Shown: piece after piece, positions 35,915-51,125 of the stretch | How the letters are laid out: each line of letters opens with the position of its first letter | Position numbering within the stretch: position 1 is the first letter of the stretch | From: Eledone cirrhosa | Lineage: Eukaryota | NCBI GenBank assembly: GCA_964016885.1 | Contig: OZ024743.1 | Coordinates: 65,596,001-65,660,000, forward strand | Length of the DNA stretch: 64,000 nt | Direction: 5' to 3' | Program-made: the position numbers and the translations under genes | Notes under the pieces: model-generated | Databases searched by the model: none | Seen by the model: the letters and a program-made list of their open reading frames with translations, nothing else | Told to the model about the DNA's origin: nothing

Positions 35915-36416
35915 ATAAATGTAATCTGAGTTTTTCCAATATTAATAATAACATGCGATTCGTTTGCAATTATGCAAACAAGCCTCAATTTTATAGCCAT
36001 ATCAGTAGAATGAACACTTCATTCTTACTCTTGGATGCGAACAGAACTGCAGAGACTAATGTTTCTGGGTATCACCCTTCATCAGTACAGCTCACTGTTC
36101 ACCTGCCTCACTGTCAGAGCTAGTGAAAATTTATGCTATTTTCAAAAATACACAGTGACTGATCGGCCTGATTTGCATATTAGCAGACTGTATATATTTT
36201 CACTAGCTCTGACAGTTTGGCAGGTGAACAGTGAGCTGTACTGATGAAGGGTGATACCCAGAAACATTAGTGTCTGCAGTTCTGTTCGCATGCCAACATA
36301 AGAGCAAGAATGAAGTGTTCATCCTACTGCCATGGCTATAAAATTGAGACTTGTTTGCATAATTGCAAACGAATCGAATGTTATTATTAATATTCGAAAA
36401 ACTCAGATTACATTTA
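35915..36416. mobile_element. Family C fold-back element (arms ~35915-36130 and ~36197-36416), one HHR per arm
   Basis: ~215-bp inverted arms with scattered substitutions, flanked by TA tracts. Confidence 0.85.
36233..36282 (+). ncRNA. Type I hammerhead ribozyme (family C), GUC site; mirror copy at 36044-36093 (-)
   Basis: GAGCTGTA-CTGATGA-AGGGTGATACCCA-GAA-ACATTAGTGT-C-TGCAGTTC. Confidence 0.85.
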
Positions 36417-36679
36417 TATATATATATATATATATATATATATATATATATATATATAATTAAGTTAAAGATGTACATCCATATATGTATACTGAAATAC
36501 TAGTATGTATATGAATACACACACGTATACATATGTAGATGTACCAAGTTTTTTCACTGGTCACTTTACTGTGAGTGGCCAGCTATTCTGTATGTAAACA
36601 CACAGACAAACCGGTTTTTAGAGTCATACTGGTTTTTGAGGAAACACCTTTCCTCTATTCTCCAGAAAGCCAGACAAGG

Positions 36680-36724
36680 AATATTGAACTAGTTTCGTTG
36701 TTGTTACAACTCATCAGCAATATT
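36680..36724 (-). ncRNA. Minimal type I hammerhead ribozyme, unit 1
   Basis: AATATTG-CTGATGA-GTTG-TAACAA-CAAC-GAA-ACTAGT-T-CAATATT; palindromic stem III (ACTAGT), GUU site. Confidence 0.9.
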
Positions 36725-37146
36725 TACCTATCTTCCGGCCTCTCTAGAGAATCGTAAAAGCACATATCGTTATATGCTTTTTCTATGAAAATTAGTAGTG
36801 GGCAGACTAATTTGCATAGAGTGTGAGTAAGTACCGGTTCAACGGAGACGATAAAAACAAATAACGAAACGAAATTAAATTTCGTTTCATTTGTAACTCA
36901 CTTTTGTATGACTGACGCTTAAACAATTAAGTTAAAGATGTACATCCATATATGTATACTGAAATACTAGTATGTATATAAATACACACACGTATACATA
37001 TGTAGATGTACCAAGTTTTTTCACTGGTCACTTTACTGTGAGTGGCCAGCTATTCTGTATGTAAACACACAGACAAACCGGTTTTTAGAGTCATACTGGT
37101 TTTTGAGGAAACACCTTTCCTCTATTCTCCAGAAAGCCAGACAAGG

Positions 37147-37191
37147 AATATTGAACTAGTTTCGTTGTTGTTACAACTCATCAGCAATATT
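37147..37191 (-). ncRNA. Minimal type I hammerhead ribozyme, unit 2
   Basis: Identical to 36680-36724, offset by 467 bp. Confidence 0.9.
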
Positions 37192-37613
37192 TACCTATCT
37201 TCTGGCCTCTCTAGAGAATCGTAAAAGCACATATCGTTATATGCTTTTTCTATGAAAATTAGTAGTGGGCAGACTAATTTGCATAGAGTGTGAGTAAGTA
37301 CCGGTTCAACGGAGACGATAAAAACAAATAACGAAACGAAATTAAATTTCGTTTCATTTGTAACTCACTTTTGTATGACTGACGCTTAAACAATTAAGTT
37401 AAAGATGTACATCCATATATGTATACTGAAATACTAGTATGTATATGAATACACACACGTATACATATGTAGATGTACCAAGTTTTTTCACTGGTCACTT
37501 TACTGTGAGTGGCCAGCTATTCTGTATGTAAACACACAGACAAACCGGTTTTTAGAGTCATACTGGTTTTTGAGGAAACACCTTTCCTCTATTCTCCAGA
37601 AAGCCAGACAAGG

Positions 37614-37658
37614 AATATTGAACTAGTTTCGTTGTTGTTACAACTCATCAGCAATATT
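37614..37658 (-). ncRNA. Minimal type I hammerhead ribozyme, unit 3
   Basis: Identical to 36680-36724, offset by 934 bp. Confidence 0.9.
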
Positions 37659-48745: not shown

Positions 48746-48880
48746 GTGAGCTCTGTGAGCTCTGATGTTCTACCACTATACACTACATATATATATATAT
48801 ATATATATGTATATATATATACATATAGATATATACATACATATCTATATCCATATTAATATGCATATATACATGTATAT

Positions 48881-50099
48881 ATTACAGGGAAAAATGCGGG
48901 CGCATGTAAAGAAATATTCTTAAATTAATAAACCTAGAAAAGTAAAGGACAAGTTATTACACCTGGAAAAGTAAAGGACAAGAAAACTTCTTCTTAAAAC
49001 TTCTTAAAATATTGCAGCTATAGTATAAATTTGAATAATAAAAAATATTTGATTTAAATATACAGAGAAAGTGATAAATTCTAATAATACAGTTGACTCT
49101 CTAATTGATAATAATACTAATTTATGATCATTTATTTAATTTTGTGATCCTAATTTACACCATAGTGGTTGGGTCATTAAATAAATATACTTTATTTTAC
49201 TTTACTAAATGGGACTGAAAAAATGAGTGACAATTATAAACATCAAATAAAACAAAATTTTGGCGTGTAAATGACACTAACAATTAATTAATAATTAATT
49301 AGGGAACCAACTGTAATGATAAATAATAACAAATTATAATTGTTTAATAATGAAATTTAAGACCTGTCAGAGATCAAAATAACCAATCTACATTTTTAGG
49401 TTGAGTAAAATTAGACTACAATTAAAAATTAAACATTGTCTAATTCAACAGTTCATCTAATGAATTGATGAATTCACTATAATTGATTGATTCACTATAA
49501 ATGAATAATTGATGAATTGACTTTTACCTAATTTTGCCCCTTGAGATGTTGAATTTTACTATATTATAAAAAAAATCTGTAATACTCATAAAAAGTGCAA
49601 TTATATGATGCACTGTTTTTGATTTATTTTACTGCATTATTTTATAACTAAATTTTTAAAAATATAATTTGATTAAGAGTGAACATTTTTAAATATCTTA
49701 TAACATAAATTAATAAATTGTACATATTAATTATTATTATTAATTAATTATTGTACAAATTATTGTACAAATTATTGTACAAATTTTATTTTAAAAAGAT
49801 TAATTTGTATACACCAAGAAAAAAATTAAGTATACAGTAGTCAACTCTCCCTATAAGACAGTCATTTTTCCAGTCCTTTAAAGTGATATTTTTTTAACAA
49901 TTAACTTATAATTATTTATTTTTAGTTTTATAATCTAAATATTTTTTTTAAAATTTAGACTTTAGCTGCAATATTTTAAGAAGTTTTAAGAAGTTTTCTT
50001 GTCCTTTACTTTTCCAGGTGTAATAACTTGTCCTTTACTTTTCTAGGTTTATTAATTTAAGAATATTTCTTTACATGCGCCCGCATTTTTCCCTGTAAT
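48881..50099. repeat. Long-spacer inverted repeat, ~140-bp arms (48881-49020, 49963-50099) around an AT-rich interior
   Basis: Arms are near-perfect reverse complements and contain an internal AAAAGTAAAGGACAAG duplication. Confidence 0.85.
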
Positions 50100-50217
50100 C
50101 CACTTTTTTTCCAGGTAATGCAAGGATATTATATTAATATTAATAAAAATATTTATCAACAAATAAGTTAAATAATAATAATAATAATGAATAGGAAGAA
50201 GTGCAGATAGGAAAAAG

Positions 50218-50290
50218 TAATCAGGGTGGGAATCGAACCCACGACCTTCGGATTGCCGGTCCGCTGCTCTACCAACTGAGCTACCTGACC
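50218..50290 (-). tRNA. tRNA-like gene, anticodon GGC (nominally Ala), probably a pseudo-tRNA or transposon-borne
   Basis: 73-nt cloverleaf GGTCAGG-TA-GCTC-AGTTGGTA-GAGC-A-GCGGA-CCGGCAA-TCCGA-AGGTC-GTGGG-TTCGATT-CCCAC-CCTGATT-A, followed by CTTTTT. Has C33, a 27:43 mismatch and no G3:U70. Confidence 0.65.
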
Positions 50291-50701
50291 ACAATTCGCT
50301 ATTGCACAATCTATCACTATTTTATTTTAATGTATTAGAAATTAGAAACAAACTAAGCGTTACTTATGTATGTAGTTCCTTACACTCTTTTGGTCCTCAC
50401 TTATTTTTATGTAACTTTTTTACTACTGAACCAAATTTCAATATTTTTATGTCAAAAAGTAGCTTATCTGTGGTCGTATAAAGTGCAAAAAACCGCATGC
50501 AATTCTATCAAAAATTGAATTAGTGACAAAGCTTTGAAGGTGTCGCGAGTGACCGAAATGGGACCTTAAGAATATTATACACCTACTACCGTAGGTGTAT
50601 GATATATATATTTTAATATATATATATATTTATATATATATATATATATATATATATTATATATATATATATATATATATATATATATATATATATATAT
50701 A

Positions 50702-51125
50702 TAAGTTGAAATAAAATGAAAACGAATTTTCATTTCTCACTCTTAGTACGGCACTTACTTATACACACATACTTACATTTAAGTAAGTGCCGTACTAAGA
50801 GTGAGAAATGAAATTTCGTTTTCATTTTATTTCAACTTGTCGTTTTCGGTATGCCTGACCGACTTAGCTCACTCGATATGCAAATTAGGCTGCTCAGCCG
50901 TTAATTTTCATAAGGAAAGTATATATTTTCGAACGTTCAACTATCTGGCAGATGGGTATACGGTGCTGATGATAGCTAACAAGCTTGAAACTAGTACATC
51001 GTTCCTGTGTCAGCGTTGAACAAAAAGGTGACGTGGTTGCGTTAACACCGTACGGCATAAAAATTCAGGCTGTTCAGTTTGTTTACAAACGAACAAAGCG
51101 GCGTTACAATAAGCGTCCGCTAAAC
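50702..51125 (+). mobile_element. (TA)n-flanked HHR element with 5' fold-back (50702-50838)
   Basis: Palindromic arms of ~58 bp, then an octamer and an HHR. Confidence 0.7.
50961..51001 (+). ncRNA. Minimal type I hammerhead ribozyme, GUA site
   Basis: CGGTG-CTGATGA-TAGC-TAACAA-GCTT-GAA-ACTAGT-A-CATCG. Same loop II (TAACAA) and stem III (ACTAGT) as the 467-bp repeat HHR. Confidence 0.85.

Follow-up and report, generated by a model that had tools for sequence, protein, structure and literature searches.

The window analysed here, the whole 64,000-nucleotide (nt) stretch at positions 65,596,001 to 65,660,000 of Eledone cirrhosa contig OZ024743.1, is eukaryotic DNA rich in simple repeats from a genome of 3.0 Gb. 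It carries members of three families of short repeated elements, here called A, B and C, each with a hammerhead ribozyme motif and each with a common promoter-like module shortly before the ribozyme; the resemblance of this module to the small nuclear RNA (snRNA) promoters of the host is our main subject. Family A forms a tandem array on the minus strand (36458-37690, in window positions) of 2.6 units of 467 base pairs (bp) that are 99% alike, which spans unit coordinates 62 to 360 and has (TA)n on both sides. Family B is represented by a solo element at 50.9 kb on the plus strand, with a tail (50703-50850, +) made up of a 59-nt inverted duplication (50703-50761 and 50780-50838) and then a cluster of T4 runs (50819-50846) that sits directly ahead of the family B module. 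Family C is present as a copy that resembles a short interspersed nuclear element (SINE) at 35887-36178 (-), which terminates 3' in a T4 run (35887-35890), with (TA)n beyond it. A second family C copy, inverted and 5'-truncated (36174-36417, +, with CTGATGA at 36241), retains the TATA box of the module but not its conserved first box in sense orientation.

The ribozymes of families A, B and C are assigned to the type I hammerheads by motif and fold, and are predicted to cleave. The core reads CTGATGA-GTTGTAACAACAAC-GAAAC-TAGTT in the family A hammerheads (36664-36735, 37131-37202 and 37598-37669, -), CTGATGA-TAGCTAACAAGCTT-GAAAC-TAGTA in the family B hammerhead (50945-51018, +, with CTGATGA at 50966) and CTGATGA-AGGGTGATACCCA-GAAAC-ATTAGTC in that of family C (CTGATGA at 36079-36085, -). 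All three have the full core, a helix II (with a U-U mismatch at its base in family B) and an open helix I, and their helix III of just 2 bp resembles that of repeats thought to work as dimers. The flanks of helix I are paired in the minimum-free-energy folds, at -36.1 kcal/mol and z = -5.3 for family A, z = -1.75 for B and z = -1.64 for C. At gathering thresholds Rfam reports no hammerhead in the window; family A reaches 37.7 bits on the HH9 model against a cut-off of 52, and B, C and a further hammerhead-like motif, family D, are unlisted at E-values up to 10. Arrays of families A and B are present elsewhere in the genome. As short non-coding tandem units with a predicted type I hammerhead and many copies, the A, B and C units fit the metazoan retrozymes that lack long terminal repeats (non-LTR retrozymes).

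A shared module ahead of the hammerheads

By itself, the octamer ATGCAAAT is no commoner in the window than expected by chance, with eight occurrences against 6.49 expected and at least eight in 35 of 100 shuffles. Four of the eight lie in ribozyme sense shortly before hammerheads, two of them in the family A array (36810-36817 and 37277-37284, -), one in family B (50878-50885, +) and one in family C (36171-36178, -). With the first octamer base as reference, CTGATGA begins at +100 in A, +88 in B and +93 in C, with gaps of 92, 80 and 85 nt, respectively, between the end of the octamer and the core. An earlier, sequence-only reading of this DNA had put these gaps at 93, 80 and 85 nt; the values for B and C stand, and that for A is shorter by one. 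Its observation of the octamer is confirmed, in that the module strings it quoted match the sequence and all four octamers it cited or implied are present.

The octamer opens a module of ~48 nt, which consists of a box of 11-12 nt (ATGCAAAT[TC]AGG), an ATTTT ~26 nt into the module and a TATA box at module positions 43-45 (TATAAC in A, TATATA in B and ATAAAT in C). The two family A copies (36770-36817 and 37237-37284, -) are identical and hold the box ATGCAAATTAG, ATTTT and TATAAC, the last at 36769-36774 in the first copy. The family B module (50878-50925, +) holds ATGCAAATTAGG, CTCAG, ATTTT and TATATA (50920-50925), and that of family C (36129-36178, -) holds ATGCAAATCAGG, GATCAGTCAC and ATAAAT. 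A GGCAG in B and C lies where a start 30 nt past the TATA box would fall, and the predicted start of family B is near 50950, within this GGCAG. The hammerhead at the edge of the family A array is without a module because the array begins 10 nt before the predicted start site.

Even when the 11-nt box is left out, the modules of A and B are similar (z = 4.5, with none of 500 shuffles reaching the score), as are those of B and C (z = 3.95, again none of 500); for A and C the similarity drops to z = 1.98, a score that 24 of 500 shuffles attain. The extended module is therefore beyond chance, and it is the best-kept part between the families. We further note that A and B align in the ribozyme, part of the body and the tail as well, which makes them sister families, and that C shares with either of them nothing but the module and the ribozyme core. 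The description of the three as unrelated families in the sequence-only reading thus fails for A and B. The A and B modules contain, 11-12 nt past the box, an imperfect inverted copy of it (ATGCAAATTAG ... CTAATTTTCAT, the latter reading ATGAAAATTAG on the opposite strand), so that the two form a short palindrome (36785-36817 and 37252-37284, -, in family A; 50878-50911, +, in family B). A family C copy at locus L043 (1400-1510) has three tandem box repeats of ~35 nt before its TATA box, two with ATGCAAAT and one with ATGCAGAT.

Comparison with host snRNA promoters

Host snRNA genes were located by Rfam models in the same genome and the DNA upstream of them was compared (31 distinct promoters), with a U6-class set of three distinct U6 promoters (contigs 5, 9 and 19), U6atac and RNase MRP. 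The pattern ATG[CG][AT]AAT[TG]AG, derived solely from host genes, is found in all six distinct U6, U6atac and MRP upstream sequences, where it starts at -76 to -78, and all of these have TATA at -30. The same pattern is found in none of the 23 distinct U1, U2, U4 and U5 upstream sequences and in neither of the two for 7SK and RNase P. In the U1, U2, U4 and U5 promoters, AA[TC]CAG[TC] stands near -58 (17 of 23), with a AATTAAAT motif near -90 and a TATA-like box near -30; ATCAGT lies at -66 in RNase P and at -64 in 7SK. The comparison also yields a first description of the snRNA promoter signals of this genome, namely a U6-class box at -77, AATCAGT near -58 in U1, U2, U4 and U5, and TATA near -30 in both classes.

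The first 11-12 nt of the module (ATGCAAATTAGG) match the host U6-class box, and the 11-mer derived from the host is present exactly in families A and B and with one mismatch in C. Outside the elements, the host pattern occurs twice in 122,976 window positions, so that a chance match at a set distance from a ribozyme has a probability of ~3 in 10,000. Judged by sequence, the box upstream of the A, B and C ribozymes is the box of the host U6, U6atac and MRP class.

This comparison also bears on the octamer, which the sequence-only reading had taken for the POU octamer of snRNA-type promoters. The exact octamer is found in three of five U6-class genes, and the remaining ones read ATGCTAAT and ATGGAAAT. 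The octamer letters are not a distal element but run directly into AAT[TG]AG at -72, which is invariant in the U6-class host genes and similar to the AATCAG core found in the other snRNA promoters. Since the octamer letters vary and the adjoining AAT[TG]AG does not, the octamer is more likely the 5' half of an element like the proximal sequence element (PSE) than a POU site, and it is probably part of the host PSE-like box. The proposal of a unit-internal promoter made of octamer, PSE-like element and TATA is, taken as a whole, partly supported: snRNA-type signals do precede the ribozyme, and the snRNA genes of the same species bear out the comparison through the 11-mer and TATA at -77 and -30 in U6, U6atac and RNase MRP, but the octamer is probably not a separate POU site.

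The 14 dispersed U6 matches are all 5'-truncated pseudogenes without box or TATA. At least 35 U6 genes lie in tandem at a spacing of ~1.8 kb (contig 19, 31.78-31.84 Mb; loci L003-L012). In about half of the fetched copies from this array, the box-bearing upstream part is replaced up to the TATA box, and the replacement looks like a reverse-complemented head of a SINE related to transfer RNA (tRNA).

Hammerhead families in the genome and in the window

Genome-wide, ATGCAAATYAG followed by CTGATGA 60-90 nt on occurs 20,577 times (10,511 + 10,066), and the reversed control gives 0 + 0. The generic core CTGATGA-N13-14-GAAAC occurs 63,051 times (251 in the reversed control). The 100 cores listed first, which lie on contig 1 at 0-5.74 Mb, were assigned to families by eye. 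Family A accounts for 24 of these, 22 of them with the box, B-like cores for 14 (11 with the box) and C-like cores for four (one with the box). The box is found in none of the 20 cores of family E, the 29 of family F, the four of family H and the five others.

Twenty box-less places were fetched for inspection. Families F and H, which lie outside this window (loci L119-L123, on contig 1 at 1.24 and 5.39 Mb, and L125-L128), show AACCAGT or AATCAG[TC] and then TATAAG 28-29 nt on in eight of nine fetched loci. Their TATA box is 50-51 nt ahead of CTGATGA, and that of A, B and C is 45-56 nt ahead. By sequence, F and H thus have the layout of a U1/U5-class box plus TATA, with a gap within the 25-30 nt of the U1, U2, U4 and U5 promoters, at the same relative place before the ribozyme, an independent case of snRNA-type signals ahead of a hammerhead. 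Family F consists of 311-bp tandem arrays in head-to-head pairs and, together with its RNA polymerase II (Pol II)-like box, has a T4 within helix I. In family E, an snRNA-type box is absent upstream in all seven fetched copies (contig 1, loci L112-L118); among the dispersed hammerhead-like cores of the sample it is the commonest, and it often has the wrong base for pairing at the helix III foot. Pieces of family A that are 95-99% alike are also found in contigs of three different organisms, among them a 497-nt contig with six differences, which suggests that the family is either common to related species or very young.

Other hammerhead-like motifs in the window are without the module. The family D motif (39020-39125, +) lies near the 3' end of a 241-nt dispersed repeat (38895-39135), and neither the box nor a TATA module is found upstream of it (motif at 39054, +). 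The genome search gave at least 40 copies of this repeat that are 93-98% identical, and several of them form inverted pairs 1-2.5 kb apart. It adjoins a tRNA-like SINE head (38720-38830, +) with a B-box-like GAGTTCAAATCC, in which neither ARAGORN nor Rfam calls a tRNA. We considered family D as part of this SINE and rejected the assignment, since the genome search places the start of the repeat only at 38895, which makes the SINE head and family D separate elements. Additional matches to CTGA.GA...GAAA at 9620 (-), 9631 (+), 19856 (-), 32111 (+) and 1046 (-), the last of which came up in the stricter core scan only, were not counted among the ribozymes, and some of them look like long inverted repeats.

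Between the A, B and C elements lies a Penelope-like open reading frame of 1394 amino acids (41408-45592, -), which carries signatures of a reverse transcriptase of the YVDD type (RVT_1, 20.8 bits) and, at its C terminus, of a GIY-YIG domain (21.7 bits). These scores fall just short of the Pfam cut-offs and were obtained after splitting the frame in three, the undivided frame giving no match. The same two domains characterise Penelope-like elements. The N-terminal half of the frame holds a low-complexity stretch rich in asparagine and threonine. A minimal hammerhead (~41150-41205, -) follows the frame, with CTGATGA starting at 41198, ~210 nt beyond the stop codon; its helix III is a single pair, and the promoter-like module is absent. 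The window also contains a tRNA-Ala (GGC) gene (50217-50290, -, 66.7 bits), which lies on the strand opposite to the family B module and ~590 nt upstream of it, and a 56-bp minisatellite at 21026-27631 with ~116 copies and 87% matches.

Proposed transcription and inheritance of the units

The shared module matches the host U6-class signals and may well let each A, B and C retrozyme unit transcribe itself, a reading that we hold with middling confidence. The box and TATA would be bound by the snRNA pre-initiation machinery, and the class of the box predicts RNA polymerase III (Pol III) as the enzyme for all three families; for F and H, Pol II would be expected. Transcription would start ~30 nt past the TATA box, at or near GGCAG in B and C, which puts the predicted start on the 5' strand of helix I and 15-26 nt ahead of CUGAUGA. 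In window positions, the predicted starts are near 36744 and 37211 (-) in family A, 50950 (+) in B and 36104 (-) in C. Most transcripts would end at the T-run cluster of the unit end. In the reference copies, the first run of at least four T past the predicted start lies at the unit end, a T5 in family A (36853-36857 and 37320-37324, -, ~40 nt before the next box), T4, T7 and T4 in B, and T4-T6 in C. Where transcription continued into the next unit, the ribozymes would cut the product to unit length. The unit-length RNA would be a circular permutation of the DNA unit, so that the external promoter would come to lie inside the copied RNA and would thereby be inherited by every new copy.

The anatomy of the copies bears on this last step. 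Ordinary U6 retrocopies lose their external promoter, as the dispersed pseudogenes do in all cases, and its presence in ~20,000 ribozyme units would thus need a permuted or tandem route. Every copy, even the solo 50.9-kb unit, has the promoter upstream of its own predicted start, which suggests that the copied RNA is not its primary transcript. From this anatomy we infer that what is copied has to be a permuted, ribozyme-cut unit, either read-through or circular, and the permuted unit fits the retrozyme model as set out in PMC7229834. A wider proposal, which we hold to be somewhat less likely than not, is that retrozymes in this genome took over host snRNA promoters of both classes, U6/MRP-class in A, B and C and U1/U5-class in F and H, and that cutting makes the external promoter heritable.

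Elements of families A, B and C almost always sit between (TA)n microsatellites (36415-36458, 37689-37719, 50602-50703 and 51155-51419 in the window; loci L033-L045). Their 3' ends recur at a small number of TTAT or AATT sites, and a partner copy that is inverted and truncated is common, as in the family C arms (36023-36152 and 36174-36303) and the family B tail hairpin. This anatomy resembles Penelope-type insertion. Four of six family A insertions have their 3' end at GTTTTTAT followed by (TA)n and two at AACTTAATT, and the two family B insertions whose 3' junction could be read terminate at CAACTTAT, 8 nt beyond the T7. We did not use these 3' ends as Pol III termination sites, since short-match priming on (TA)n accounts for all of them.

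Type 3 (U6-type) Pol III promoters consist of an upstream element and a TATA box ~30 nt before the start, need no elements within the gene, and are paired with termination at T runs. The modules described here differ from these in lying inside a mobile repeat and in a box-to-TATA gap 3-5 nt shorter than that of the five host genes compared. The promoter of the schistosome Sm-alpha repeat is said to be of the internal tRNA type, with A and B boxes. Families A, B and C show an upstream U6-type box plus TATA instead, and are like Sm-alpha in being hammerhead repeats with a Pol III promoter of their own, here a predicted one. Newt satellite 2, known through Epstein and Gall 1987 and Coats, Zhang and Epstein 1994, is reportedly a tandem repeat of ~330 bp that carries a type I hammerhead; the weak helix III of this ribozyme suggests that it acts as a dimer. 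The type I hammerhead, the weak helix III and the snRNA-type promoter signals within the unit are shared by A, B and C; unlike this vertebrate repeat, which is reportedly read by Pol II, they have a box of the U6/U6atac/MRP class, a predicted Pol III, several families and ~20,000 copies. PMC2220036 cites newt satellite 2 for an snRNA-type promoter inside a hammerhead repeat that is read by Pol II, and the Sm-alpha satellite/SINE for its own Pol III promoter (Ferbeyre et al., 1998). The unit-internal layout of an snRNA-type promoter is so far described for the newt repeat.

Metazoan non-LTR retrozymes, as described by Cervera and de la Pena (2020, PMC7229834), have units of 170-400 nt, shorter than the 467-502 bp of the units here. 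The likeness otherwise extends to tandem non-coding units, a type I hammerhead, thousands of copies and co-resident Penelope-like elements (PMC7229834; 10.64898/2026.07.22.740005), and the Penelope-like element of the window is 3.6 kb away. In the passages retrieved by term, the word promoter is used in PMC7229834 only for T7 constructs and is absent from the preprint of Li, Clavereau and Pollet (2026, 10.64898/2026.07.22.740005); neither proposes a unit-internal promoter, and how animal retrozymes are transcribed is unaddressed in both. A full-text literature search found no paper on snRNA promoters in invertebrate retrozymes.

Several observations weigh against self-transcription from a U6-class promoter. 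The distance from the AAT[TC]AG core to TATA is 37-39 nt in the A, B and C modules and 41-43 nt in U6, U6atac and MRP (25-30 nt in Pol II-class host genes, with one U5 promoter at 33), so that the module is not an exact copy of a host promoter, and such spacing can matter. Beyond box and TATA, the similarity between modules and host promoters is not significant, with z < 2 in 13 of 15 pairs. Families B and C carry an additional CTCAG or ATCAG core 28-30 nt from TATA, which is the Pol II-class distance and makes the call of the polymerase less certain. The association is also not general to hammerheads, since only about one third of the hammerhead-like cores carry the U6-class box (33% genome-wide, and 34 of the first 100 listed).

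The T runs and the insertion ends raise similar difficulties. In 12 of 18 further family A copies, a T5 is found already at unit position 345-346, and the T7 in family B, which would halt Pol III efficiently, must be crossed by any RNA of unit length in which the promoter is included. The T-run depletion within the body is weak, being reached by 84 (A), 75 (B) and 454-554 (C) of 2000 shuffles, and we rejected it as evidence both for these figures and because it is circular, the body being defined by the first T run. Across six family A insertions, the 5' ends are spread over unit positions 1, 62, 265, 288, 321 and 327, and were accordingly rejected as a fossil of the start site; the start of the window array at 62, ~10 nt before the predicted start, is probably a coincidence.

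The module could instead be a working snRNA-type promoter read by Pol II, with T runs irrelevant and multimers the normal product, an explanation that we regard as unlikely. The second core in B and C stands at the distance from TATA seen in the U1, U2, U4 and U5 genes, and because the promoters of these genes also have a TATA-like box near -30, TATA is no marker of Pol III in this genome. Pol II easily crosses the T5-T7 runs that promoter-containing unit-length RNA must cross, arrays of 1.9-2.6 units that span internal T5 runs exist, and newt satellite 2 is a precedent for Pol II, as cited in PMC2220036. What speaks for Pol III is the class specificity of the 11-mer box in the host, found in all U6, U6atac and MRP promoters and in none of the 23 Pol II snRNA promoters, along with family A, which is without a second TCAG core, and families F and H, whose Pol II-like layout uses a different box.

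The module could also have been kept for a role in the RNA or in its copying, such as a hairpin of a rod-like circular RNA or a site for a Penelope-type reverse transcriptase, its likeness to the U6 box being incidental. The palindrome of A and B would make an RNA hairpin, any unit-length RNA contains the module, and the spacing of box to TATA is unlike that of host genes. Such a role appears quite improbable, as an identity over 11-12 nt combined with TATA at near-host distance is unlikely by chance, and the unrelated pair F and H have another host snRNA box plus TATA in the same place, which a role in RNA structure does not predict. Highly doubtful, too, in our judgement, is an inert relic, in which an ancestral capture beside a U6-class promoter was carried along by whole-unit copying and transcription is by read-through. 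In favour of a relic, the copies are of recent origin and differ little from one another (99% alike in the array), so that conservation among them says little on function, and many insertions are truncated or inverted and hence unable to use the module. Yet the module is kept between B and C, whose other parts no longer align, and different families hold two promoter classes, both of which argue for continued selection in source copies.

If host promoters of both classes were taken over, the elements would be self-transcribing parasites of the snRNA transcription machinery, and a host snRNA promoter in each unit would explain the high, tissue-wide expression reported for retrozymes. The box, the TATA and the predicted start would offer precise, mutable targets, and the case would show how a promoter type that lies entirely upstream of its transcript can travel with a retroelement.

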